From a candidate division FCPU426 bacterium (GTDB lineage Bacteria > Oederibacteriota > Muellerivitia > Muellerivitales > Muellerivitaceae), in the NCBI GenBank assembly GCA_963771075.1, contig CAVYSE010000005.1:32001-96000 (forward strand): DNA of 64,000 nt, in the 5' to 3' direction. The position numbers and the translations under genes were made by a program. The notes under the pieces were generated by a model that did no database searches, had not been told where the DNA came from, and was given only the letters and a program-made list of their open reading frames with translations. How positions within the stretch are numbered: position 1 is the first letter of the stretch; each line of letters starts with the position of its first letter. This document shows positions 40,394 through 63,604 of the stretch, one piece after another.

Positions 40394-40603
40394 GGAGCGG
40401 CGCAAACCATGGGAGCAGGTCAGGTATTTACTGGAAAATGAATCGTTTATTCTGGGGAGAGTTATTGACCATGACGGGGACCCGTCGTGGACATGGGAAA
40501 TAACTCGTTTTAACCCCGATTAGGACAGAACTTTTACCCCTCCTGTTTCGTCCTATAATTATCCAGGTGTTTGTAGTCTCGTTTTCGGGAAAGAGGTAAA
40601 GCT

Positions 40604-42453: not shown

Positions 42454-42669
42454 ATGAAAGTCACCGCGCTATTACCCGATAAACTAGTACGGGAAGTCCA
42501 AGGTTTTGCCAAAGGCAAAAACCTCACGGAATCGCTCGTCAAAGCATTATCGGAATGGAACCAACAACAAAAAATCAGGGATTTGAATCAACTGGTTCTT
42601 GAGCATCCCCTGGGTTTCTCCAAAACTTTTTCCGCCCCTCGCGTTCGAGCCAAAAACAGAAAATCATGA
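42454..42669 (+). CDS. Putative VapB-type antitoxin
   Basis: Small RHH-like protein (MKVTALLPD.LV); overlaps the PIN toxin start. Confidence 0.75.
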   Translation: MKVTALLPDKLVREVQGFAKGKNLTESLVKALSEWNQQQKIRDLNQLVLEHPLGFSKTFSAPRVRAKNRKS

Positions 42670-43040
42670 TCCTTGTCGATACCTCCATTTGGGTGGAGTT
42701 TCTCAAGGGGCATCAACCCTATTTTGATCAAATGAAACAATTGTTGGAGGAACGCCAAGTCCTTGCGGTCGAACCTGTTTTCGGCGAATTGCTCCAAGGA
42801 GCTAAAGATGACCGTGAAAGGCGGATTCTTCAGGGATTTTGGGAAAATCTTCCCAAAAATAAAATACAGGATGCCTGGGTGAAGGCGGGGGAATTATCCT
42901 CCCGAAAAAAATGGAGTGATCGCGGAATCGGATTGATCGACGTGGTCTTGATTATTTCCTCTCGGGATTCAAACGCAAAGATTTGGTCTTTAGATAAGAA
43001 GTTAAATAGCGTATTGCACAAGAATGAGATTTTTGAATAG
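42666..43040 (+). CDS. PIN-domain (VapC-like) toxin
   Basis: ILVDTSIW, ELLQG, GLID, WSLDK. Confidence 0.88.
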   Translation: MILVDTSIWVEFLKGHQPYFDQMKQLLEERQVLAVEPVFGELLQGAKDDRERRILQGFWENLPKNKIQDAWVKAGELSSRKKWSDRGIGLIDVVLIISSRDSNAKIWSLDKKLNSVLHKNEIFE

Positions 43041-44978: not shown

Positions 44979-45230
44979 ATGGCCCAACTCATCGTTAGAA
45001 ATTTAGATGACAGCGTGAAGATGAAGCTGAGCCAAAGGGCCCGGAAGAATGGGCACAGCACGGAGGAAGAAGTACGGGATATCTTGAGAAACGCGGTAGG
45101 AAAAGATAGGGGCCTCGCCCCCATGCCATTGGGCGCCAGGTTTAAGGCGCGGTTTAGCAAGATAGGCCTAACTAGGGAAATCCCCGAATTGCGTGGACAG
45201 CAGGCCCAACCCGCCACCCTTGTCCCATGA
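44979..45230 (+). CDS. FitA-like RHH antitoxin
   Basis: MAQLIVRNLDD...RA..NG.S.EEEVRDIL. Confidence 0.88.
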   Translation: MAQLIVRNLDDSVKMKLSQRARKNGHSTEEEVRDILRNAVGKDRGLAPMPLGARFKARFSKIGLTREIPELRGQQAQPATLVP

Positions 45231-45646
45231 TCCTGCTCGATACAAATGTCCTTTCCGCATTGATGCTTCGGGAACCGGACCCTACGGTCGTTTCATGGCT
45301 GGATCGCCAGTCCGTTGAATCGGTTTGGACAACGACGATCACGGTATTTGAAATTCGGTTTGGCCTCGAGAACCTGGCGGGTGGGAAAAGACGGCGTCAG
45401 CTGGAAGAAATTTTTAACCAAACCCTGGAAATTGATTTGGAAGGCCGAGTCCTGCCATTTGACCTGGCCGCGGCCCGGGCGTCTGCCTCGATCGCGGCCC
45501 AACAAAGAAAAAGTGGGCGTCCGGTTGAGATACGAGATGTCCAGATTGCCGGGATCACTTTGGCCAGCAAGGCTACATTAGCCACCCGCAATATCCGGCA
45601 TTTCCAAGGGCTTGGTATCCATCTGATCGATCCCTGGAAAGCCTAG
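45227..45646 (+). CDS. FitB/VapC PIN toxin
   Basis: ILLDTNVLS, EIRFG, D.QIAGI, LATRN..HF, IDPW. Confidence 0.92.
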   Translation: MILLDTNVLSALMLREPDPTVVSWLDRQSVESVWTTTITVFEIRFGLENLAGGKRRRQLEEIFNQTLEIDLEGRVLPFDLAAARASASIAAQQRKSGRPVEIRDVQIAGITLASKATLATRNIRHFQGLGIHLIDPWKA

Positions 45647-45694: not shown

Positions 45695-45973
45695 ATGGTA
45701 AATAAAAAGACGGTTGTGATGAAGATAAACATCAAGGCGTTCGGATTGGCTTGTGGTTTGTTGTGGGGTCTGGGAGTTTTAGGCCTGACTTGGTGGGTCA
45801 TCCTTTTCGAGGGGCCAACCCACGACCTGATGTTGCTTGGACACATCTACCGGGGTTATGACATCAGCCCCGCCGGAAGTTTGATTGGGACTGCTTATGG
45901 CCTGGTGGATGGAGGGGTGGGCGGCGTCGTTTTCGCCTGGCTTTATAACCTCCTCTGCGTCAAGTTCAAATGA
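45695..45973 (+). CDS. Small 2-TM membrane protein (holin-like size and topology)
   Basis: KAFGLACGLLWG...YRGY....GSLIG..YG..DG...AWLYN. Confidence 0.7.
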   Translation: MVNKKTVVMKINIKAFGLACGLLWGLGVLGLTWWVILFEGPTHDLMLLGHIYRGYDISPAGSLIGTAYGLVDGGVGGVVFAWLYNLLCVKFK

Positions 45974-46023
45974 TCAGGTGTTGAGGAATAGCTTGTCCAC
46001 GATGGGGACCCTTCGTGGACATC

Positions 46024-48000
46024 GTGCCAGCGAAGGTTTGTAGAGCCAGCAGGTGAGGGAGTAGGCCGAAGAGGGCCAGCCCAAATCCTGACCAGGTAAT
46101 CGCCAGAGAGCCTGGAAGTCAGCCCCCGGCGTAGGACCGAGAGGTTCTGCCCGAAACGGGGTCATAAACCTCATTCAGTGAGGGAACAATCTAGCAGTCC
46201 GCAACATCAAGTGAATCCTGCCGCGTCGTGAATGGGACACCGAAAGGTGCAAGAGGATGCCGAGCCGCGTGTCTACCGGCGAAGGCCACGATCCCGCTGA
46301 AGAATCTGGAGCAAGCGGGGCAAGTCCTCCGGCGTATGGGGAACGGAATGCTGGAAAGGCTTTGCAAGCAACCTGGGAGATCCTACCCGCCAAAAGACTT
46401 GCCGCTATAAGGCTAAAACCGAAAAGGGGCAAGGGCGGGAGGAAGTCGGAGGGGGTCACAATACCTGTGAAGGGTGGACAACAAAACCACCTGGAGGGAA
46501 GGACCCCTGCTTCAACCAAGCAACCTTCAAAAGGGAGGCGCTGGAGCATGCCCCAAAGGGCCAACAACTCCGAAGACAAGGCGCGAACCCTTCAAAGGGC
46601 GCTATACCGAGCGGCCAAGAGGAGCCCAAGCCGGAGATTTCATGTACTGCATGACAGGATGACCCGATGGGATGTCCTGACAGCGGCATGGAAACAGGTG
46701 AAGGCTAATAAAGGCCAAGGAGGAGTGGACGGGGAAACGCTGGAATGGATCGAAGAGAAGGTGGGAATTATTCCATTCCTGAAGGGCATCCAGGAAGAAC
46801 TCAAAGCTGGGAAGTATCTGCCTAAACCTGTGAGACGAGTGGAAATACCCAAGCCTGATGGAAGCAAGAGACCGTTGGGAATCCCGGTAATTCGGGATCG
46901 GGTAGTTCAAGCGGCTTGCCGGAAGGTGGTGGAACCCATCTTTGAGGCGGACTTTCTGGAAGGCTCGTTTGGATTTCGGCCAAAACGCGGAGCCCAGCAG
47001 GCCCACCGGGAGATCAAGAAGTGGATCAATGGCGGGTACAGATGGGTGGTGGATGGAGATATTCGGAAGTATTTCGATTCCATCGACCACGACAAACTGA
47101 TGGTGCTGGTGCGCCAGAGGATCAGTGACCGGAAGGTTTTGAAACTGATCCGAGGGTGGCTGAAGGCGGGTGTGTTTGAGGAAGGAAGGCTTACGCCGAC
47201 TCTCCGAGGGACACCGCAAGGCGGGGTGATCTCACCGCTGTTATCCAATGTTTACCTTCACTTGCTGGACAAGGTTTGGAATAAGAGGCACAGGAAACTG
47301 GGTAGGCTGGTGCGCTACGCCGACGATTTTGTGGTGTTGTGCGGAAGCCAAGCCCATGCGGAAAAGAGCCTGGAAGTCATCAAGGAATTGATGGGACGAC
47401 TAGGGCTTGAACTGCACCCCGAAAAGACACGGCTGGTGGAAATGGGGCCTGGGAAGGAAGGGTTTGACTTCCTTGGGTTCCACTTTCGAGTAGGTATGCC
47501 GGTGGTAGGATTGGGTAAGACCTGTTGCCTGAGCTGGCCGAGCCGGAAGGCCATGAAGAAAATCGCCGAGAAAGTGAAGCAGATGACGGCGGGCCGAGAG
47601 CGGCTCTTATCTCCAATGGAGGATGTAGCGAAGGCTTTGAACCCGGTGTTAAGGGGGTGGGCCAACTATTTCCGAATTGGGGACAGCCAGCCATACTTTT
47701 CCAAGCTTCAATTTTACGTACTCGAAAGGCTGACTTTGTTTCGGAGGCATAAGTACGCCTGGGAAGGACGAACATGGTCGATCGAGGAAGTGAAACGCCT
47801 TGGTTTGAACTGGATTCCAGCTTTTGCCTTGAATGCTGCCGGTTGAAAGGTTGTCGGAAAGCCGTATGATCGAAAAGGTCACGTACGGTTTGATGAGGGG
47901 GCGCTGGAAACGTGGTGATGAGAGCCGGACTGAGGCCCAATCCGAAAGGGTTGGATTCGCCACCGTACTCTAAGGCATACGCGCCAGCGCTCTACTCTGC
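46024..48000 (+). mobile_element. Group II intron, copy 1 (1977 nt)
   Basis: 5' GTGCC; RT ORF; domain V GAAAGCCGTATG...CACGTACGGTTTG; domain VI ending CTACTCTGC. Boundaries set from the three-copy comparison plus the GUG start and branch-A spacing. Confidence 0.92.
46548..47846 (+). CDS. ltrA: Group II intron reverse transcriptase/maturase, no endonuclease domain
   Basis: RPLGIP..RDRVVQ, GFRP, GTPQGGVISPLL.N, RYADD, FDFLGF, LRGWANYF. Start placed at 46548. Confidence 0.95.
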   Translation: MPQRANNSEDKARTLQRALYRAAKRSPSRRFHVLHDRMTRWDVLTAAWKQVKANKGQGGVDGETLEWIEEKVGIIPFLKGIQEELKAGKYLPKPVRRVEIPKPDGSKRPLGIPVIRDRVVQAACRKVVEPIFEADFLEGSFGFRPKRGAQQAHREIKKWINGGYRWVVDGDIRKYFDSIDHDKLMVLVRQRISDRKVLKLIRGWLKAGVFEEGRLTPTLRGTPQGGVISPLLSNVYLHLLDKVWNKRHRKLGRLVRYADDFVVLCGSQAHAEKSLEVIKELMGRLGLELHPEKTRLVEMGPGKEGFDFLGFHFRVGMPVVGLGKTCCLSWPSRKAMKKIAEKVKQMTAGRERLLSPMEDVAKALNPVLRGWANYFRIGDSQPYFSKLQFYVLERLTLFRRHKYAWEGRTWSIEEVKRLGLNWIPAFALNAAG

Positions 48001-48036
48001 ACGAAAAGTCACGCATAAGAGGCAGTTTATGATTAG

Positions 48037-48456
48037 TTGGCCAATTTGAAAAAGATTAAACCCTGGGTGAAATTTTGGTTATTCGCAGGAACTTTATTAT
48101 TTGGTTACGTGTTTTGGGGGTTGGTTGAAGAAGTTGCTTTCAATAATCGATTTTTTATCCCCACTTTGAGTTCTCGGATGGTTCGGTTAACCGGGTTCAT
48201 TCATTTTCGCATAATCGACTTTTGGTGTTCCAATTGTATCTACGTTTTAGACAGTTCTGGCTCCCAAATTAAAGTGATCGTTCCCCAAAAAGTCCAAGAC
48301 GAAGTTCGGAGAACAAATTGGGGAGATTTAAAAAAGAACGGGAAAACAGTATTTGTTGACTTGAATGCAATATCTGGGGGTCTCGGGGATTATTATGTTT
48401 GTACGAGAGTCAATTCGATTAATGTCGTTGATGGAGTTGTTTCAGTAAGCAAATAA
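48037..48456 (+). CDS. Hypothetical cassette protein (N-terminal TM)
   Basis: AT-rich ORF filling the space between intron 1 and the repeat at 48471. Confidence 0.6.
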   Translation: MANLKKIKPWVKFWLFAGTLLFGYVFWGLVEEVAFNNRFFIPTLSSRMVRLTGFIHFRIIDFWCSNCIYVLDSSGSQIKVIVPQKVQDEVRRTNWGDLKKNGKTVFVDLNAISGGLGDYYVCTRVNSINVVDGVVSVSK

Positions 48457-48550
48457 TTCACATGAAGAGCTGTCCACGACGGGGACCCGTCGTGGACGAT
48501 GTTTTTAAGTTTATTACCCAAATTATAAGTTCTTTCAGATTGGATGTTTT

Positions 48551-49936
48551 ATGAAGAACCGATGGCAATGGGCGGTGACGATTGGGGCTGTCCCACTCTA
48601 TTACCTCCTTTCGCTTATTCCTCTTTATCATTACCCTAATTTTACTAATTCCCATGTAGGCAATCCGCCTATTGGATTGTTCGCACTTGGCCCAACACCG
48701 ATCTATAGTGGTTTTGTATTTGTAGAAATCATTTCCATCCTGGTCAATCCTTTAAAGCGATGGAGAACACAAGGGATGGCAGGCAGGGAAAAAATACATC
48801 GAGTTCAGCTTATTTTTATGTTTCTTGCAGCCATGTTTCAGGGATGGGGCACGGGTGAACTTATTAAAACTTTTGGCCCCGATTACACGGTGGAAATATT
48901 TGGAACGACCGGACTAGCCGCTCAAATTATTCTGTGTTCCTGTTTGGTTAACGGCGTCTTGATCTTCTACTTGATCGCTACAAATGTGTCCCTGTATGGT
49001 TTGTTCAATGGTTTTATTCTTTTCCTTTTCGTACGGCCCCTGGTGTCGAAAACTCTGGGTCTCATCGATGGAATCCAAACGGACTTACGCTTGCCCGTTG
49101 ACCTTCACTTTTCTAATTTTGATGAAAAAATGAATTTTATATATTTCTTTTTCGTCCTTGTAGGCGTGGGGTTTGTTCTGTACCAAAAACGAAAGAAAAT
49201 ATTAGAACTTATTTATCATTATGTGCTTCGTAACCCATTGGTTGGCTATCAAACAAAAGAAAAATTGTATCAAGTGAAAACTTCGCCCGTTCCTCAAACG
49301 TTAACGGGTGGTTTGGGTGTTTTGGTGCTGATTCTACAAATGGTTTTGTACCAACATGGCGCTTTTTCGGATAACGGGACTTTGCGAAATGTGCTATGGG
49401 TCGGGGCGGATATGATTGATCTGGGTGTGACATCTTTTTTACTTTGGCTTTTATTTACCAACACCTACTGGGTCGATCATCATCTGGAAGGACGGGCGTC
49501 TTGGCTTCCTGAACGGGACAAATTGAAGCCTTATTTTATTTTTTGGCTTGTGATGTCCGCTTTCGCAGTATTAATAAATGAGTCACCATTGTTTTTCCAT
49601 TTTTCATTAACTATTGAAAAATTGAGCCGTATTTTTCTTGAGCCTATTTTCATCCTGACGACGGTCATTTTAGGGATAGAAATTTACGAAAAATGGCAAT
49701 TCGAGCAAAGGTCGATTCAAAAAGTATGCCTGGCCGAAATGGATAATGTGGAATTGGTCCAGCTTTGGGTGGCCCAACTTGAAGAGGCGAATCTTTCCTT
49801 TCATGTGGAGGGCCTTCGTTATAGGCAACTTACGCAATTCTTTGCGCCTTATTTGAAAATGAGGCTGTTTGTGGATGAAAGTCAGGCCCAGGACGCGGTA
49901 AGCATCATTCGTTTAGAAGAAGTTAAGCAAATATAA
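48551..49936 (+). CDS. Polytopic membrane protein with SecY-like N-terminal half and DUF2007-like C-terminus
   Basis: GLFALGPTPIYSG..., G..GR.KI, A.FQG, YGLFNG resemble SecY TM2-TM5 motifs. Confidence 0.6.
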   Translation: MKNRWQWAVTIGAVPLYYLLSLIPLYHYPNFTNSHVGNPPIGLFALGPTPIYSGFVFVEIISILVNPLKRWRTQGMAGREKIHRVQLIFMFLAAMFQGWGTGELIKTFGPDYTVEIFGTTGLAAQIILCSCLVNGVLIFYLIATNVSLYGLFNGFILFLFVRPLVSKTLGLIDGIQTDLRLPVDLHFSNFDEKMNFIYFFFVLVGVGFVLYQKRKKILELIYHYVLRNPLVGYQTKEKLYQVKTSPVPQTLTGGLGVLVLILQMVLYQHGAFSDNGTLRNVLWVGADMIDLGVTSFLLWLLFTNTYWVDHHLEGRASWLPERDKLKPYFIFWLVMSAFAVLINESPLFFHFSLTIEKLSRIFLEPIFILTTVILGIEIYEKWQFEQRSIQKVCLAEMDNVELVQLWVAQLEEANLSFHVEGLRYRQLTQFFAPYLKMRLFVDESQAQDAVSIIRLEEVKQI

Positions 49937-50057
49937 TGTGGGAGTTCGCTGTCCACGATGGGGACCCGTCGTGGACAAGCTTTAGTCACAAGGCCAAGAT
50001 GAAAATTCAAAATGGGTGATTATTGAAAACTGAGAAGGTGGAAAGAAGCTTAACCCA

Positions 50058-50558
50058 ATGGAAAATTCTTACAATTTAGAAAAAACTATTTGGTCAGAAG
50101 CCGACTTTGAAAAAATGTGTTGGCATGATGTTCATGTCCATGGAATTTCGTTTGGGCCAATGTCGGAAGAAAACGGAACGGCCGATTTTTTATTTGATAT
50201 TGATTACCTCTTTGAATGGATAAAACCCATTGCGCCTGAAATTTTCTATAGCTTTTGGATAGCCCCATGCACTCTCGTTTTTGAAAACGCGTATGACTTT
50301 AAAATGCAAATAGAAGACAAAATAGGTTTTGCTTTCGGTCCCTTTGTAATAGAAGATTTTTCAATGGCTGAGAACCTGGAACGGGATGGCGTTCATTACG
50401 GTTACCGTTGGAAAATCAAACTTAGAACCGGGTGGATAGAATTGAAATCCTACGGATTAAAACAATACGTTCGCCAAAAACCGAGAGTGGGTGGCCAATG
50501 GTTGTTATTTGAAGAACGGGCCGGTGTGAATTATCAAAAAAAATATTCCGGGTCGTAA
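50058..50558 (+). CDS. Hypothetical cassette protein
   Basis: AT-rich ORF between the repeats at 49950 and 50563. Confidence 0.75.
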   Translation: MENSYNLEKTIWSEADFEKMCWHDVHVHGISFGPMSEENGTADFLFDIDYLFEWIKPIAPEIFYSFWIAPCTLVFENAYDFKMQIEDKIGFAFGPFVIEDFSMAENLERDGVHYGYRWKIKLRTGWIELKSYGLKQYVRQKPRVGGQWLLFEERAGVNYQKKYSGS

Positions 50559-50592
50559 GGGTTGTCCACGATGGGGACCCATCGTGGACATC

Positions 50593-52569
50593 GTGCCAGC
50601 GAAGGTTTGTAGAGCCAGCAGGTGAGGGAGTAGGCCGAAGAGGGCCAGCCCAAATCCTGACCAGGTAATCGCCAGAGAGCCTGGAAGTCAGCCCCCGGCG
50701 TAGGACCGAGAGGTTCTGCCCGAAACGGGGTCATAAACCTCATTCAGTGAGGGAACAATCTAGCAGTCCGCAACATCAAGTGAATCCTGCCGCGTCGTGA
50801 ATGGGACACCGAAAGGTGCAAGAGGATGCCGAGCCGCGTGTCTACCGGCGAAGGCCACGATCCCGCTGAAGAATCTGGAGCAAGCGGGGCAAGTCCTCCG
50901 GCGTATGGGGAACGGAATGCTGGAAAGGCTTTGCAAGCAACCTGGGAGATCCTACCCGCCAAAAGACTTGCCGCTATAAGGCTAAAACCGAAAAGGGGCA
51001 AGGGCGGGAGGAAGTCGGAGGGGGTCACAATACCTGTGAAGGGTGGACAACAAAACCACCTGGAGGGAAGGACCCCTGCTTCAACCAAGCAACCTTCAAA
51101 AGGGAGGCGCTGGAGCATGCCCCAAAGGGCCAACAACTCCGAAGACAAGGCGCGAACCCTTCAAAGGGCGCTATACCGAGCGGCCAAGAGGAGCCCAAGC
51201 CGGAGATTTCATGTACTGCATGACAGGATGACCCGATGGGATGTCCTGACAGCGGCATGGAAACAGGTGAAGGCTAATAAAGGCCAAGGAGGAGTGGACG
51301 GGGAAACGCTGGAATGGATCGAAGAGAAGGTGGGAATTATTCCATTCCTGAAGGGCATCCAGGAAGAACTCAAAGCTGGGAAGTATCTGCCTAAACCTGT
51401 GAGACGAGTGGAAATACCCAAGCCTGATGGAAGCAAGAGACCGTTGGGAATCCCGGTAATTCGGGATCGGGTAGTTCAAGCGGCTTGCCGGAAGGTGGTG
51501 GAACCCATCTTTGAGGCGGACTTTCTGGAAGGCTCGTTTGGATTTCGGCCAAAACGCGGAGCCCAGCAGGCCCACCGGGAGATCAAGAAGTGGATCAATG
51601 GCGGGTACAGATGGGTGGTGGATGGAGATATTCGGAAGTATTTCGATTCCATCGACCACGACAAACTGATGGTGCTGGTGCGCCAGAGGATCAGTGACCG
51701 GAAGGTTTTGAAACTGATCCGAGGGTGGCTGAAGGCGGGTGTGTTTGAGGAAGGAAGGCTTACGCCGACTCTCCGAGGGACACCGCAAGGCGGGGTGATC
51801 TCACCGCTGTTATCCAATGTTTACCTTCACTTGCTGGACAAGGTTTGGAATAAGAGGCACAGGAAACTGGGTAGGCTGGTGCGCTACGCCGACGATTTTG
51901 TGGTGTTGTGCGGAAGCCAAGCCCATGCGGAAAAGAGCCTGGAAGTCATCAAGGAATTGATGGGACGACTAGGGCTTGAACTGCACCCCGAAAAGACACG
52001 GCTGGTGGAAATGGGGCCTGGGAAGGAAGGGTTTGACTTCCTTGGGTTCCACTTTCGAGTAGGTATGCCGGTGGTAGGATTGGGTAAGACCTGTTGCCTG
52101 AGCTGGCCGAGCCGGAAGGCCATGAAGAAAATCGCCGAGAAAGTGAAGCAGATGACGGCGGGCCGAGAGCGGCTCTTATCTCCAATGGAGGATGTAGCGA
52201 AGGCTTTGAACCCGGTGTTAAGGGGGTGGGCCAACTATTTCCGAATTGGGGACAGCCAGCCATACTTTTCCAAGCTTCAATTTTACGTACTCGAAAGGCT
52301 GACTTTGTTTCGGAGGCATAAGTACGCCTGGGAAGGACGAACATGGTCGATCGAGGAAGTGAAACGCCTTGGTTTGAACTGGATTCCAGCTTTTGCCTTG
52401 AATGCTGCCGGTTGAAAGGTTGTCGGAAAGCCGTATGATCGAAAAGGTCACGTACGGTTTGATGAGGGGGCGCTGGAAACGTGGTGATGAGAGCCGGACT
52501 GAGGCCCAATCCGAAAGGGTTGGATTCGCCACCGTACTCTAAGGCATACGCGCCAGCGCTCTACTCTGC
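50593..52569 (+). mobile_element. Group II intron, copy 2
   Basis: Same sequence as copy 1 by inspection (offset 4569); same encoded protein. Confidence 0.92.
51117..52415 (+). CDS. ltrA: Group II intron RT/maturase
   Basis: Translation identical to copy 1. Confidence 0.95.
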   Translation: MPQRANNSEDKARTLQRALYRAAKRSPSRRFHVLHDRMTRWDVLTAAWKQVKANKGQGGVDGETLEWIEEKVGIIPFLKGIQEELKAGKYLPKPVRRVEIPKPDGSKRPLGIPVIRDRVVQAACRKVVEPIFEADFLEGSFGFRPKRGAQQAHREIKKWINGGYRWVVDGDIRKYFDSIDHDKLMVLVRQRISDRKVLKLIRGWLKAGVFEEGRLTPTLRGTPQGGVISPLLSNVYLHLLDKVWNKRHRKLGRLVRYADDFVVLCGSQAHAEKSLEVIKELMGRLGLELHPEKTRLVEMGPGKEGFDFLGFHFRVGMPVVGLGKTCCLSWPSRKAMKKIAEKVKQMTAGRERLLSPMEDVAKALNPVLRGWANYFRIGDSQPYFSKLQFYVLERLTLFRRHKYAWEGRTWSIEEVKRLGLNWIPAFALNAAG

Positions 52570-52610
52570 ATGAAAAGTACCAATGGAGCGTCTGATAGGG
52601 TGAGGTATTA

Positions 52611-53588
52611 ATGGGATTTTTTGAAGAATTCAAAAAACTGCTGTGGCTCTACAACCCCCTTAAAAAATCTGGAAGGCCTGGGGAGATTAAGAGCCGAGGC
52701 ATCAACGGAGCTGTTTTTTGCCCCATTTACAACCATTGGATTTCCAACCTTGAGTGTTTAGAAACGAGCGGGGAGCGCGGCTCCTACGACGAAATTGACA
52801 AACCCGATTTAAATCATTTGGAAACCGGCTACAACGATATTCATAACGCGACTAAACGTAGCGGGCATAAATTCCCCCAAGACATTAAAAAAGTGGTCAT
52901 TACCTGTGAGTATTGTGAAGCCTACTGCCTCGGCCAGGAAAATGGACCTCTAGTAGTCCCTCCCATTGACAGTATCGATCGAAAGAAATTGTTGTTCGAT
53001 TTATATGACGAAAGTAAAAGATATTCAAAAGACACCATTGACCCAACGGAATTGGAGAAGATTAAAAAGGCAGCCATGGAACTGAGCGAAAAAGCCGGAA
53101 AATACTTGGCCGAACATCTGAACCTTGAAAAAGAAATACGCGAAATAACAGTCGAATTCGAAGCGCAAGAAACTGGAAAAACGGGTTTTTGGATCATTCT
53201 TTTTGGCCTCGTTTTTGCTGTCGCCGGATTCGGGAATCTTTGGAATGTCAACTGGTTCGCTCATAAAGCCTTTCAGGGGAAAGGGGCTGTTTTGTCGGTA
53301 GAGAAAAAAGAAGCGACCGACAGTGGCAAATGGATTGCCCGGGTCCGATATACCCCTCGGAATTACCCAGAAGTCGTCGCTGAGCTTGAAGTTGAAAAAC
53401 CTTATGAAACAAATCAATTGGTAGAATTTCTTTATGACCCACAAAACCCCAATAAGCTACGGCCCGCCAGCTGGTCAAAAAAAAGTCCGCTGACCAATTT
53501 CTTTTTGGCGATAATTGGCATTGTTGTCATCGGGTTCGGCTGGAGCAAATTAAAAGTTGCCAGGCCTTTTTATCCGAAAAGGGGTTAA
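52611..53588 (+). CDS. Hypothetical membrane protein with DUF3592-like C-terminus
   Basis: TM-beta-YDPQNP-TM layout; RBS GAGG. Confidence 0.65.
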   Translation: MGFFEEFKKLLWLYNPLKKSGRPGEIKSRGINGAVFCPIYNHWISNLECLETSGERGSYDEIDKPDLNHLETGYNDIHNATKRSGHKFPQDIKKVVITCEYCEAYCLGQENGPLVVPPIDSIDRKKLLFDLYDESKRYSKDTIDPTELEKIKKAAMELSEKAGKYLAEHLNLEKEIREITVEFEAQETGKTGFWIILFGLVFAVAGFGNLWNVNWFAHKAFQGKGAVLSVEKKEATDSGKWIARVRYTPRNYPEVVAELEVEKPYETNQLVEFLYDPQNPNKLRPASWSKKSPLTNFFLAIIGIVVIGFGWSKLKVARPFYPKRG

Positions 53589-53612
53589 AAGGTTGCTATG
53601 AGGCCATTCCTC

Positions 53613-53802
53613 AAGTTCAATTAAGCCCACCCGTCAGCCTTTTGGTTTCGCGGATTCACGCTGCTATTCGTGCTCGAGGCACAAGTTAAAAATTCGATAA
53701 TCCAGTAGGGAAGCCACCAGCTGTCCATCGTGCCTTACGGCACCACCAAATTCCGTGGTCATTCCAAAGGGATCGAATCACAAAACCGAGGCTGAAACCT
53801 CT
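53613..53802 (-). ncRNA. Candidate seek/bridge RNA of the IS1111-type element
   Basis: Two similar hairpin units 60 nt apart, each next to a 7-mer: one matches the target repeat, the other the predicted circle junction. Confidence 0.65.
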
Positions 53803-54873
53803 TTAGCGCATGGGCCGATACACTTCCTTCCGAACCAACATCGTCCAAAGGTGAATCAAAAGCTTGTGCGCCATTGCCACAATCGCCTTGTTGACGTGTC
53901 CCGTATTACGGACCAGTCGACGAAAAACACGGTAGGCCTGGGTATCCTTTTGGATCCATGACCAGGCCGCTTCAACCAAGGTCGCTCTCAAAGTGCCTTT
54001 TCCGGCCTTCTGTAAATGGCCTTCCTTCCGGGTTTCACCGCTTTGCCTGATCCTAGGGGCCAACCCCACGTAAGCCGCCACTTGTTTGGCGTTTTCAAAG
54101 CGTTCCGGCTGGTAAATCTCCGTTAATACTTGCAGGGTCGTCACTTCGCCCACTCCTGGGTGGGTTCTCAGGATCTTGGCCTTTTTCTCGTAGGCCTTCT
54201 CCTTCATCATGACCCTCAAACGTATGTTCACGTCCTTGAGCTGCCTATCAAAGTAAAAAAGATCTTCCAATAGGCGATCCAAGGTGAACCTCAGGGCAGG
54301 TGGCAGTTCCATTTCCCGTAATATCCCAATGGCTTCGTGGGTCCAGTAATCCAACCCTCTGGGAGTTTTGAGCCCATATTGAAGGAAGAAGCTCTTGATC
54401 CTTTGTTTGGCCTTGCGTTTCTGCTCGACCATCGCGTTCCTCAAACGAACCACCTGCCGGTCAGCTTCTTCCTGGAGGGTTGGGATCGCCACCGCCTTCA
54501 GCAATTCTTTCTCCGCATACTCCGCCAGTTTGCTACAGTCCAAACGGTCGGATTTTGTTTCAAACTGCGACACGCGAGGAGTCTTGTGCGGGGCGATGAC
54601 ATCCAATGGGTATCCCTCCTCCCGAAGGCGGCGGGCCAGGCCAAAACCGGTAGGGCCTGCCTCGTAGACGACCTTTTTCAACCCCACCCGATAAGGCGCC
54701 AGGACCTTCACCACCGCCTCCCAGTCCGCTGTCAGGGACTTTGTTCCGACTTCCTTTCCGTTAATCCTGATTGCCATATAAATACTTCGTTTGTGGACAT
54801 CCAATCCCACAAACACAGCGTCCCGCTTGGATACCTCCTTGCCTCGGTATCCTTTTTTGCTAATCTGTTTCAT
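53803..54873 (-). CDS. IS110-family DEDD transposase/recombinase
   Basis: VGLDVHK, YEAG, KSDRLD, PGVG, YVGL.P...QSG, A..A.A.KL. Confidence 0.95.
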   Translation of the reverse strand: MKQISKKGYRGKEVSKRDAVFVGLDVHKRSIYMAIRINGKEVGTKSLTADWEAVVKVLAPYRVGLKKVVYEAGPTGFGLARRLREEGYPLDVIAPHKTPRVSQFETKSDRLDCSKLAEYAEKELLKAVAIPTLQEEADRQVVRLRNAMVEQKRKAKQRIKSFFLQYGLKTPRGLDYWTHEAIGILREMELPPALRFTLDRLLEDLFYFDRQLKDVNIRLRVMMKEKAYEKKAKILRTHPGVGEVTTLQVLTEIYQPERFENAKQVAAYVGLAPRIRQSGETRKEGHLQKAGKGTLRATLVEAAWSWIQKDTQAYRVFRRLVRNTGHVNKAIVAMAHKLLIHLWTMLVRKEVYRPMR

Positions 54874-55059
54874 GGCCATTCCTCCTTGTGAGTTGCCTGC
54901 TCACCGGGACTAGTTTAATCCCGGCGGAGGAATGGCCTTCATGTTACCTGTCCACGACGGGGACCCGTCGTGGACACCTAATTCTGACGTGGCTTTGGAT
55001 AAACCTCTTTGCTTTAGTCATGGGTGATAAGGACTGAATTTTAGGACGAAAGGAAAACC

Positions 55060-55644
55060 ATGAAAACCGTTCTTGTTATTTTAGCATTGATCGTTTTGGT
55101 TTTTTTCTTTTGGAAGTTCAAATCCCGGCGTCTTTTTGACCCGGAAGCCCTCATGCCGGGTTACGCACAGAAGGCCATCTCGACCGCCAAGGAAAAGTAT
55201 GGCCTCACTTTGGATCTGGACGAAAAAAACTTGAAAGTTCTTGAGATGAAAATTATGAGGCCGCTAAGTGAAGAGTTTAAGAAAAAAGCCTTATCGGACG
55301 AAGAACTTGCGAACAATTGCATTCTTTGGGGGGCTTATCTGGGGGAAATGTTAAAGAAGGCTTCGCCCTACTGGTCTCAGGCCCATTGGAGATTAAATGA
55401 TTCAGAAAAAGGCCAACAAACAATTAATCCAAACCAGATTGGTTTGGCGGGAAAGGATTTTGTGGTTTATCCCGGTGCTTGGGTTCAAAAACATATCGAA
55501 GACCCTATAAACGATAATTTCGTGGGAAAGTATGAATTAGCTTATCAACTGCCAAACACGGATCAGAATAAAAAGGGCACTCAGGGTCAGCTGATAGATA
55601 AAGATGGGAACCCTATCAAAATGCGATATATGCCTGAAAAGTAA
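55060..55644 (+). CDS. Hypothetical cassette protein (N-terminal TM; GAYLGE motif)
   Basis: RBS AAGGA; fills the interval between the repeats at 54949 and 55663. Confidence 0.75.
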   Translation: MKTVLVILALIVLVFFFWKFKSRRLFDPEALMPGYAQKAISTAKEKYGLTLDLDEKNLKVLEMKIMRPLSEEFKKKALSDEELANNCILWGAYLGEMLKKASPYWSQAHWRLNDSEKGQQTINPNQIGLAGKDFVVYPGAWVQKHIEDPINDNFVGKYELAYQLPNTDQNKKGTQGQLIDKDGNPIKMRYMPEK

Positions 55645-55692
55645 TAGATTGTTTGGTGAAGTTGTCCACGACGGGGACCCATCGTGGACGTC

Positions 55693-57669
55693 GTGCCAGC
55701 GAAGGTTTGTAGAGCCAGCAGGTGAGGGAGTAGGCCGAAGAGGGCCAGCCCAAATCCTGACCAGGTAATCGCCAGAGAGCCTGGAAGTCAGCCCCCGGCG
55801 TAGGACCGAGAGGTTCTGCCCGAAACGGGGTCATAAACCTCATTCAGTGAGGGAACAATCTAGCAGTCCGCAACATCAAGTGAATCCTGCCGCGTCGTGA
55901 ATGGGACACCGAAAGGTGCAAGAGGATGCCGAGCCGCGTGTCTACCGGCGAAGGCCACGATCCCGCTGAAGAATCTGGAGCAAGCGGGGCAAGTCCTCCG
56001 GCGTATGGGGAACGGAATGCTGGAAAGGCTTTGCAAGCAACCTGGGAGATCCTACCCGCCAAAAGACTTGCCGCTATAAGGCTAAAACCGAAAAGGGGCA
56101 AGGGCGGGAGGAAGTCGGAGGGGGTCACAATACCTGTGAAGGGTGGACAACAAAACCACCTGGAGGGAAGGACCCCTGCTTCAACCAAGCAACCTTCAAA
56201 AGGGAGGCGCTGGAGCATGCCCCAAAGGGCCAACAACTCCGAAGACAAGGCGCGAACCCTTCAAAGGGCGCTATACCGAGCGGCCAAGAGGAGCCCAAGC
56301 CGGAGATTTCATGTACTGCATGACAGGATGACCCGATGGGATGTCCTGACAGCGGCATGGAAACAGGTGAAGGCTAATAAAGGCCAAGGAGGAGTGGACG
56401 GGGAAACGCTGGAATGGATCGAAGAGAAGGTGGGAATTATTCCATTCCTGAAGGGCATCCAGGAAGAACTCAAAGCTGGGAAGTATCTGCCTAAACCTGT
56501 GAGACGAGTGGAAATACCCAAGCCTGATGGAAGCAAGAGACCGTTGGGAATCCCGGTAATTCGGGATCGGGTAGTTCAAGCGGCTTGCCGGAAGGTGGTG
56601 GAACCCATCTTTGAGGCGGACTTTCTGGAAGGCTCGTTTGGATTTCGGCCAAAACGCGGAGCCCAGCAGGCCCACCGGGAGATCAAGAAGTGGATCAATG
56701 GCGGGTACAGATGGGTGGTGGATGGAGATATTCGGAAGTATTTCGATTCCATCGACCACGACAAACTGATGGTGCTGGTGCGCCAGAGGATCAGTGACCG
56801 GAAGGTTTTGAAACTGATCCGAGGGTGGCTGAAGGCGGGTGTGTTTGAGGAAGGAAGGCTTACGCCGACTCTCCGAGGGACACCGCAAGGCGGGGTGATC
56901 TCACCGCTGTTATCCAATGTTTACCTTCACTTGCTGGACAAGGTTTGGAATAAGAGGCACAGGAAACTGGGTAGGCTGGTGCGCTACGCCGACGATTTTG
57001 TGGTGTTGTGCGGAAGCCAAGCCCATGCGGAAAAGAGCCTGGAAGTCATCAAGGAATTGATGGGACGACTAGGGCTTGAACTGCACCCCGAAAAGACACG
57101 GCTGGTGGAAATGGGGCCTGGGAAGGAAGGGTTTGACTTCCTTGGGTTCCACTTTCGAGTAGGTATGCCGGTGGTAGGATTGGGTAAGACCTGTTGCCTG
57201 AGCTGGCCGAGCCGGAAGGCCATGAAGAAAATCGCCGAGAAAGTGAAGCAGATGACGGCGGGCCGAGAGCGGCTCTTATCTCCAATGGAGGATGTAGCGA
57301 AGGCTTTGAACCCGGTGTTAAGGGGGTGGGCCAACTATTTCCGAATTGGGGACAGCCAGCCATACTTTTCCAAGCTTCAATTTTACGTACTCGAAAGGCT
57401 GACTTTGTTTCGGAGGCATAAGTACGCCTGGGAAGGACGAACATGGTCGATCGAGGAAGTGAAACGCCTTGGTTTGAACTGGATTCCAGCTTTTGCCTTG
57501 AATGCTGCCGGTTGAAAGGTTGTCGGAAAGCCGTATGATCGAAAAGGTCACGTACGGTTTGATGAGGGGGCGCTGGAAACGTGGTGATGAGAGCCGGACT
57601 GAGGCCCAATCCGAAAGGGTTGGATTCGCCACCGTACTCTAAGGCATACGCGCCAGCGCTCTACTCTGC
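55693..57669 (+). mobile_element. Group II intron, copy 3
   Basis: Same sequence as copy 1 by inspection (offset 9669). Confidence 0.92.
56217..57515 (+). CDS. ltrA: Group II intron RT/maturase
   Basis: Translation identical to copy 1. Confidence 0.95.
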   Translation: MPQRANNSEDKARTLQRALYRAAKRSPSRRFHVLHDRMTRWDVLTAAWKQVKANKGQGGVDGETLEWIEEKVGIIPFLKGIQEELKAGKYLPKPVRRVEIPKPDGSKRPLGIPVIRDRVVQAACRKVVEPIFEADFLEGSFGFRPKRGAQQAHREIKKWINGGYRWVVDGDIRKYFDSIDHDKLMVLVRQRISDRKVLKLIRGWLKAGVFEEGRLTPTLRGTPQGGVISPLLSNVYLHLLDKVWNKRHRKLGRLVRYADDFVVLCGSQAHAEKSLEVIKELMGRLGLELHPEKTRLVEMGPGKEGFDFLGFHFRVGMPVVGLGKTCCLSWPSRKAMKKIAEKVKQMTAGRERLLSPMEDVAKALNPVLRGWANYFRIGDSQPYFSKLQFYVLERLTLFRRHKYAWEGRTWSIEEVKRLGLNWIPAFALNAAG

Positions 57670-57695: not shown

Positions 57696-58313
57696 ATGGT
57701 AGCCCAATTTCCCGATATTACCTTTGAAGGTCCGCTCATATCAGATCAAAATTTTCTAAACGCTCTCCCTGAGGATTTAAAATCAATTCTCAAAATAAAA
57801 AATGGTTTTATCGCTTTTGCCGGTGGATTTCACATGAGAGGGATTTGCGAAGAACCTAGTTGGCATTCGTGAGAACTGTTTTGGACCGGTAAGCATTCCT
57901 TTTCGAAATTGTATTCTTCTATTCAAAAAGACGATGTACCTTTTGGACAAGATTGCTTGGGTGATCAGTTTATTTTAAGAAAGAACCAAGTATTACGTCT
58001 TAGGGGTGAATCGGGAGACATTGTAGATATGAAAATGGATTTATTAACTTTCTTGGATGAAGCTGAATCAAATCCTTTTGATTTATTAGAACTAGCTCCT
58101 TTGAAGCGAATTCAAAACGAAGGAAAAAAACTGGAGCCCGGCCAATTAATTAATGTGTTTCCTCCCTTTATTACCGCAGAGAGCCGTAAAGGCGTTTCAT
58201 TGAAGCCAATACCAACCGTCGAAAGAATCTTGTTTCTTTCCGATCTTGCTAAACAAATTTCCAATATTTCTGACGGTACACAAGTTAAATTCAATATAAG
58301 CTCTAAGGGGTAG
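57696..58313 (+). pseudogene. SMI1/KNR4-like immunity-type cassette gene with a premature stop
   Basis: RBS AAGGAGG and ATG at 57696 in frame with the 57909 ORF; TGA at 57870-57872; LP.D, NGF, PFGQDC.GDQF. Confidence 0.65.
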
Positions 58314-58382
58314 TTTGAGGGCTTAGCGATTGTCCACGATGGGGACCCATCGTGAACAAGGGAATTATGAGGTTTGTAATAA

Positions 58383-63043: not shown

Positions 63044-63604
63044 ATGGCTAGACCGTTAAGAGTGCATTATGAAGGCGCTGTTTATCACGTTACCTCGCGG
63101 GGGAACGAGCGGAAAAACATTGTCCGGTCGGATAAGGACCGGGAATTGTTTTTGTGGGTATTGGCCCAAGTCGTGGAGGATCATCATGTGATGTGCCATG
63201 CCTGGGTATTGATGGATAATCATTACCACTTGTTGGTGGAGACGCCGGAAGCCAACTTGTCACGGGCCATACGGCACCTGAATGGTGTTTATACCCAGAA
63301 ATTCAATCGGCGGAATAACCGCAGAAAAAGGGGCCAGGCCTACATATTACACTTTACGTGAAACGCGTCTATCTTGAGGAGGGTCGGGAAGGTGTATGGG
63401 GAAAAGCCGGAGGAGGTATTGAGGGCGGGGCGCAGGAAAAGCGTGGCGCGGGCGGTGGCGATTTACCTGCTCAAGAAGGAATCGGGTTTGAGCCTGGGGG
63501 AAATCGGAAAAAGGATGGAGGTCGGTTTTTCGGCGGTGGGGAACCAATGGTCGAAGATCAAAAAAAGCTGTCCGAGGACCCTGAATTTGGCCGGATGGTT
63601 CTAA
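63044..63604 (+). pseudogene. HUH/Y1 (RAYT-like) transposase remnant with C-terminal HTH, internally deleted
   Basis: MARPLR....GAVYHVTSRGN, LMDNHYHLL; breaks after FNRR and resumes as AR.VAIYLLK...LSL.EIG; the catalytic Tyr region is absent. Confidence 0.85.

Follow-up and report, generated by a model that had tools for sequence, protein, structure and literature searches.

Probably recently mobile group II introns outside class C follow a 28-bp cassette site, likely by exon pairing, in a candidate division FCPU426 bacterium

The DNA analyzed here, referred to below as the window, comprises 64,000 nucleotides of contig CAVYSE010000005.1 (positions 32,001 to 96,000; assembly GCA_963771075.1) from a candidate division FCPU426 bacterium. 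It contains an array of gene cassettes in which a 28-bp palindrome, TGTCCACGAYGGGGACCCRTCGTGGACA, lies between the cassettes, and three identical group II introns, each flush with the right end of one palindrome. Our analysis revealed that these are non-class-C introns, apparently recently mobile and conventional in their likely mechanism. They encode a reverse transcriptase (RT) without an endonuclease domain, likely belong to the class F complex, and very probably arrived by ordinary retrohoming, in which three exon-binding sites (EBS1, EBS2, and EBS3) would pair with single-stranded DNA at the replication fork; targeting is likely a homing to sequence through these three elements, not the reading of a hairpin. 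Moreover, three intron lineages are likely to have specialized separately on this cassette site, at three positions. Genomes, contigs, intron loci, and public runs are labeled G, C, L, and X, respectively, G000 being the genome of the window.

Results

Intron copies and corrected boundaries

The three introns lie on the forward strand at 46022..48000, 50591..52569, and 55691..57669, measure 1979 nt (5'-UCGUG...CUCUGC-3'), and share 100% pairwise identity, as the initial annotation, made from the letters alone, had stated. Two Rfam models exceeded their gathering scores, D1-D4-4 (RF02003, 60.9 bits, cut-off 49) and Intron_gpII (RF00029, 43.4 bits, cut-off 40). The genome surveyed (4.39 Mb, 28 contigs) holds ten full-length copies, of which eight are identical, one differs by 1 nt, and one of 1970 nt carries indels at a contig end (C4); this near-identity supports the earlier proposal of recent activity. 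Additional copies are one of 798 nt lacking the open reading frame (ORF) and one that forms part of a C26 fold-back artefact. Each of the 12 5' junctions (C26 fold-back copy included) falls directly after the palindrome, and every 3' junction found is followed by A at +1, as first noted for the window. The 3' flank is different for each copy, and none is bordered on the 3' side by a 28-bp site of its own. Co-orientation with the cassettes, with no gene broken, also holds in the window (plus strand, no ORF disrupted), but fails as a general rule, since the forward palindrome end is used by 8 of the 12 copies and the opposite end by the other four (one of them the C26 artefact).

The start positions first proposed (46024, 50593, and 55693) proved to be wrong by 2 nt. 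The intron begins with UCGUG, the dinucleotide TC belongs to it, and the insertion point coincides with the end of the 28-bp site (GTRGACR|A). With this start EBS1 pairs with the exon at 7/7 positions, against 2-4/7 for a GUGCC start, and in relatives the dinucleotide that follows GGACA (TC, GC, or GT) tracks the intron variant and not the site. The register was further examined in distant introns, using the 84 of 160 loci in which a motif alone sufficed to place the 5' end and the hairpin: position 3 of the EBS1 loop pairs with -1, with a fraction paired of 0.87 versus 0.24-0.56 in other registers, and for the 27 non-ATG types among them the fraction is 0.93, a value that 0 of 5000 shuffles reach. 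A bulged -2 base in the intron-binding site IBS1, once a candidate, was rejected, as TC was shown to be intron. For an empty allele, the corrected boundary predicts GTGGACA-A and the earlier one GTGGACATC-A.

Instead of the consensus ends GUGYG...AY, the window intron has UCGUG...GC, which we read as a compensated variant. Among 20 rows (four without a scored end), U1 occurs with a penultimate G in 9/9 cases (ends GC) and G1 with a penultimate A in 7/7 (ends AC), a covariation that fits the contact between the first and penultimate intron nucleotides (PMC4238363, citing Chanfreau and Jacquier, 1993; this and the other papers cited are followed in the parts available). Each state is present in both sub-clades of the window intron's lineage (74-row RT tree), indicating that the switch occurred more than once or that both ends were exchanged together. 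The same test failed on distant introns, where the end pattern gave no U1 end and ATG forms the terminus of introns in the start-codon group; by eye, L131 fits U1/G(n-1) and L004 is ambiguous.

Target recognition and site occupancy

EBS1 (UGUCUAC, 46270..46276, plus strand) occupies positions 3-9 of the Id3 hairpin loop and pairs with GTRGACR at -1 to -7. In every copy of its own genome it pairs 7/7, in the register fixed by the 84 distant introns, and two of its U residues explain both the A/G alternation at -1 and the GTAGAC variants (C9, C21). EBS2 (AUGGG, 46232..46236, plus strand) pairs with CCCRT at -9 to -13 and covaries with the exon in L192, L194, L195, L201, and L224. EBS3 is U46337 (plus strand), which pairs with the A at +1; all 15 comparisons match (13 U/A, one C/G, and one G/C), and an alternative EBS3 at U46335 was dropped, covariation indicating 46337. 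Furthermore, retargeted relatives alter EBS and exon jointly (G004; L224 and L236 of G027; G041). Both EBS positions that the initial annotation had proposed were wrong: GGCGT (46331-35), its EBS1, is paired within domain I to 46223-27 (probability 0.89-0.93), and CCACGAT (46286-92), its EBS2, is a linker that varies in same-site relatives (CCATGAT, CTATTAT, CAACAAT). Its comparison with hairpin targeting by class C introns is likewise misleading, since sequence is what this intron reads, by means of its three EBS elements.

The targets of copies 1 to 3 are the sites at 45994..46021 (IBS1 being the final 7 nt, and IBS2 positions -9 to -13), 50563..50590, and 55663..55690, the last ending in G, which forms a wobble pair with an EBS1 U. 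On the same strand, 48471..48498 (GTGGACG|A) and 49950..49977 (GTGGACA|A) are perfect targets that stand empty. Empty too are 54949..54976, where +1 is C and EBS3 unpaired, 58331..58358, where EBS1 meets a mismatch (GTGAACA), and five more sites of the same array between 40466 and 45676 (at 40466, 42379, 43048, 44829, and 45649). The claim that occupancy is restricted to sites with TC|A after them was thus an artefact of the 2-nt boundary error, and the apparent target saturation (RTC|A at 11/11 occupied versus 0/184 empty ends) was rejected, TC having proved intronic.

Three of the five eligible forward ends are filled in the window, and 10/57 eligible ends genome-wide (C26 fold-back and orientation-unclear ends excluded), so chance or other determinants also matter. 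Full EBS1 pairing (7/7) is found at 10/10 occupied and 98/184 empty ends (P=0.003), and A at +1 at 10/10 and 108/184, respectively (P=0.007); the C26 copy, which has no 3' end, and the C4 contig-end copy were left out of this test. Eligible ends are filled in 9/25 cases on the G-rich strand versus 1/32 on the other (P=0.003), by GC skew, a crude strand proxy on a 28-contig assembly, and this bias is confounded with cassette direction, in which 7/21 forward and 3/36 reverse ends are filled (P=0.028). The bias matches the lagging-strand-template insertion reported for RmInt1 (PMC8914252).

Intron class

The RT/maturase ORF (46548..47846, plus strand; 51117-52415 and 56217-57515 in the other copies) sits in domain IV and encodes 432 aa with a YADD motif. 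It scores 423 bits with TIGR04416 (cut-off 300) and contains the domains PF00078 (RVT_1) and PF08388 (GIIM) alone. Domain V (47857..47890, plus strand) has 34 nt, an AGC triad (47860-62), and a 5-nt GAAAA loop, and the initial annotation was accurate on the triad as well as on the missing endonuclease domain. On the same strand, alpha (CCAGA, 46103..46107) covaries with alpha' (UCUGG, 46305..46309, in a hairpin terminal loop) as CCAG/CUGG, CCUG/CAGG, and CCCG/CGGG, and domain VI (47893..48000) is predicted by folding to be long (~108 nt), with a bulged branch A at 47994 (-7) and the end GC. An AGC triad, a 5-nt domain V loop, and alpha' in a terminal loop are traits of classes IIE/IIF, and a long domain VI is one of IIF (PMC3753933); the window intron shows these class E/F ribozyme traits, the long structured domain VI included.

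In an RT tree of 26 rows, with class labels from Tables S1/S2 of PMC3552965, a single clade of class C plus the query was rejected (approximately unbiased test, p-AU 0.00085), the class C references being four: two integron introns assigned by context and two with a CGC triad. The RT phylogeny thus supports the earlier assignment outside class C, and the intron itself has AGC and not CGC, a domain V of 34 nt in place of the short one of class C, an EBS1 of 7 bp where class C pairs over 3-4 bp, and a covarying EBS2, an element that class C lacks. It also departs from class C-attC introns, with 8 of 12 copies at the forward end and a 28-bp palindrome as target. The query clade is separate from class D and g1 and joins g2 (B.th.I3) and g3 (Ni.ha.I1) at 85/94, a moderate support for the class F node, in a tree that holds neither class E nor basal F references (Ge.ur.I1, So.us.I2, Pe.th.I2). 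In a second tree (74 rows, quick mode; rows L216, L227, and L200 without protein), support for the g2/g3 grouping is 81. The g2 motif FADD in RT5 is absent from the query, which has YADD. In this context, the window intron likely belongs to the class F complex.

Three lineages on one site

We designate the window intron's lineage A; lineages B and C share 46% and 39% RT identity with it. Lineage A inserts after position 28 of the site and was found in seven genomes of the family, with ORF-less versions of 782-800 nt in G000, G011, G020, and G027. In relatives, 13 of its 18 distinct insertions are at the site, and in the remaining five both EBS and target are changed. The specialization on the repeat that had been proposed is supported by this count; the census of copies and flanks places every 5' junction at the palindrome in the window's genome, and only this fraction in relatives. 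Lineage B inserts after GGGGACCCR (position 19) in 4/4 cases (G004, G014), and lineage C after TGTCCACGAYG (position 11) in 11/14 distinct flanks in relatives; by inspection, their EBS1 loops complement their own 7-mers. Lineage C carries FADD and is sister to B.th.I3 at 100/100. Lineages B and C interrupt the 28-bp site, whereas lineage A keeps it whole, and two G027 sites hold lineages C and A together. An approximately unbiased test in which the three lineages formed a single clade (p 5e-5) was discarded as ill-posed, since the close sister L241 was kept outside, and the topology alone was used.

Further intron remnants were seen in G000. A 5' stub of a different lineage-A variant, beginning CCGTG, stands at a site at C8:88547; two orphan domain VI ends of ~100 nt with an identical 3' flank lie at C8:93777-93880 and C11:337047-337150; and C3:168.5-170.0 kb holds a 3'-truncated lineage-C intron between exact left and right site halves, 3 bases off the usual position. 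Among lineage-A copies elsewhere, L191-L193 (G027) carry a ~1.5 kb insertion near intron nt 547, L199 (G021) contains a nested second intron, and L195/L196 (G004), a retargeted intron with a 100-nt 5' insertion, occurs twice after a different, long-loop inverted repeat.

Class-F-type relatives in Bacillota (L018-L020, L025, L045, L046, L048, L116) follow terminator-like hairpins with T tracts, yet their EBS1 pairs over 4-7 bp; three of them end in AG. A large multi-phylum sister clade inserts directly after ATG or GTG (54/84 called exons; L003, L005, L007, L010, L012, L013, L015, L032, L050, L054, L065, L069, L074, L076, L085, L099, L127, L150, and others), and the 18 loci named end in ...CTACC(A)ATG or GTG, so that the last three intron bases would restore the start codon of the downstream gene. 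This clade resembles the IIB1 start/stop-codon lineage (PMC12584367), but is of a different class.

The 28-bp site and its surroundings

The 28-bp repeat was found in 27/30 other genomes of the family, in 1/1 of the next family (one hit with 3 mismatches), and in 0/29 further out. It has neither the R''-L''-L'-R' boxes nor the RYYYAAC/GTTRRRY ends of integron attC sites. A 277-aa serine recombinase (PF00239 and PF07508), recovered by query in 10/30 family genomes, has a site 27-200 nt downstream in 9/10 short-type loci, and no full-length locus has one; at the tenth short-type locus, an intron stands in place of the downstream site. From this genomic context, the palindrome is likely the recombination site of a serine-recombinase cassette system. 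No tyrosine recombinase was found near the window array, the nearest lying at C5:132-135 kb, 36 kb past the window end, with its integron type untested.

Other features of the window include an IS110 insertion sequence (53594-54954; NF033542) with its end immediately ahead of the site at 54949. This end is also found in front of a site at C9:3205, and IS110 may also target the 28-bp sites. The cassette after intron 3 (57696-58313) has a frame of ~205 codons, open except for one TGA at ~57870. Two VapBC-type toxin-antitoxin cassettes (44979-45646 and 42454-43040), a holin-family cassette (45695-45973), a SecY-like cassette (48551-49936), and a broken tyrosine transposase of the type associated with repetitive extragenic palindromes (REP; 63044-63361) were also identified.

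Discussion

The boundaries UCGUG...GC, the complementarity and covariation of the EBS elements, the exclusion of class C, and the strand bias are observed, and the retrohoming cycle that we consider very probable would add four steps to them. Transcription would start from the array or a read-through promoter; RT-assisted splicing would release a lariat through the branch A at -7; the lariat would reverse splice into the lagging-strand template; and the nascent strand would serve as primer. The palindrome would matter as a conserved, many-copy intergenic sequence rather than as a hairpin. Since insertion falls outside the 28 bp, the site would remain recombinable and the intron would join the next cassette. 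The lineages at positions 11 and 19 would use their own EBS1 and split the site, and ORF-less copies (~800 nt) would be mobilized in trans.

It might be argued that the palindrome is recognized as an extruded hairpin, in the way class C introns recognize terminators and attC, and that base pairing plays a secondary part. The palindrome does precede all copies in the own genome, the G004 relative stands behind a different inverted repeat, terminator-like hairpins lie ahead of Bacillota relatives, and a hairpin role was speculated for IIB introns (PMC7923331). We nevertheless regard this explanation as unlikely: IBS1 and IBS2 lie inside the palindrome arm, where an extruded hairpin would conceal both; whenever the EBS matches, relatives are inserted at sites of poor symmetry (G020 L198, G003 L189) and at targets that are not palindromic (L224, L236, L201); and EBS2 is present and covarying.

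There is very little chance that a collapsed repeat in the assembly has produced the three window copies as an artefact, and the initial annotation, which took them as real, finds support in unique flanks and multi-copy depth. The intron occurs in three public runs as a 100%-identical contig at a depth of 19-31, versus ~2-9 for neighboring single-copy DNA; X2 and X3 again show the C21 junction, and an X5 contig covering the C3 flank continues for 24 nt within the intron. What speaks for an artefact is the error-rich copy at the C4 end, the lack of a contig across the window junctions, and the fold-back chimera of the intron on C26, where 138.3-143.7 kb form an indel-rich mirror duplication centered within an intron copy, likely a long-read chimera. 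On the other hand, the C26 chimera and the C4 indels suggest that long reads were used, which would be able to span 2 kb. One X2 contig (depth 2.8) links the cassette at 45776-46012 to the flank at 58350, which is too thin to count as excision, and one RNA run contains intron pieces with no flanks, a weak hint in which DNA contamination is possible.

Spread of the copies as cassettes through a site-specific recombinase is most improbable and largely refuted by the unique flanks: the introns do adjoin a likely recombination site, and such a site lies shortly downstream of a serine recombinase in 9/10 short-type loci, but their 3' flanks differ and hold no site at the intron end, EBS/IBS complementarity and the +1 bias are typical of reverse splicing, and copies stand at both palindrome ends.

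Several points weigh against retrohoming by EBS pairing as presented here, in addition to the moderate class F support, the low filling of eligible ends, and the confounded strand bias given above. EBS2 is weak in one sub-lineage (4-bp runs), its own pairing is no better than cross pairing in 6/11 variants, and the permutation figure for its covariation (5/20000, 11 variants) is overstated, because these variants are related. The G004 target lies directly 3' of another inverted repeat, so hairpin assistance is possible there. No read or contig in the public runs searched spans any window-copy junction. Likewise, no intron-free allele was found when the flanks were compared with the genome and the retrieved loci, nor in 6 of 19 listed public runs (two loci), in which uncovered stretches are uninformative; consequently, it is covariation that supports the boundary, rather than the sequence of an empty site or of a spliced junction.

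A broader scenario, which we regard as doubtful, is that the cassette arrays of the family drove the three-way convergence of introns on one site. Lineage A might then be a cassette hitch-hiker, carried by excised cassettes from array to array and from cell to cell. Its many identical copies, full or ORF-less, each with a site at the 5' edge, might supply the homology by which a new gene acquires a site, a cassette-building route for a non-integron serine-recombinase system.

Our data suggest that plain EBS pairing has allowed non-class-C introns to specialize on what is likely the recombination site of a cassette system, three times separately, at three positions and with opposite predicted effects, one lineage sparing the site and two splitting it. 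The 28-bp sites appear old and conserved enough to be parasitized, which supports the cassette system as a real integron analogue. Moreover, the natural switch between U1-G(n-1) and G1-A(n-1) in two sub-clades allows the first-to-penultimate contact to be tested cleanly by comparison, and this apparently recently active class-F-type intron, endonuclease-less (En-minus) and with EBS1/2/3 mapped, is a candidate for a mobility assay; our literature search returned no such study for class-F-type introns.

Among known systems, the class F complex (g2-g4 and basal F; PMC3552965, PMC3753933) resembles the window intron, in the parts of these papers available, in the missing endonuclease domain, an RT of ~430 aa, a length of ~1.98 kb, and the AGC triad; terminal-loop alpha', the 5-nt domain V loop, the long domain VI, and EBS1 with EBS2 are shared as well. 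In contrast, the window RT is 38-41% identical to the class F references and falls in a separate clade without a named member in the tree, and the intron differs in its UCGUG...GC ends, its cassette-site target, and its ten full copies per genome. RmInt1 (class D; PMC8914252, PMC4238363) is also En-minus, homes through EBS1/2/3 to a multi-copy mobile target, and shows a lagging-strand-template bias, but its RT is ~35% identical, in a separate clade, and its target is an insertion sequence gene, whereas here it is an intergenic recombination site.

Bacterial target modes, as described in PMC4424553, comprise homing sites, terminators, and attC, with recombination sites assigned to class C. IIC-attC introns (PMC7923331, PMC4424553) are, like the window intron, En-minus and present in many copies on the recombination sites of cassette arrays. 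According to these sources they carry CGC, lack EBS2, recognize the hairpin of the attC bottom strand, and lie within the site in the orientation opposite to the cassettes; the window intron has AGC and EBS1, EBS2, and EBS3, is mostly cassette-oriented, and lies just outside a 28-bp palindrome that is not attC. The literature searched, which extended to sources other than subscription papers, showed no report of non-class-C introns targeting such cassette sites. The nearest precedent is UHB.I2 (IIB1/CL1; Sonbol and Siam, 2021, PMC7923331), likewise non-class-C, co-oriented, and directly after a cassette site (attC), with ends UUGCG..GU that share U1 and a penultimate G with the window intron. 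As described there, it is known from one metagenomic copy and belongs to a different RT class, without demonstrated specialization, whereas here the introns are family-wide, multi-copy, and of three lineages. In brief, a single IIB intron after attC is already in print, and the target, the three-way convergence, and the compensated boundary are new.

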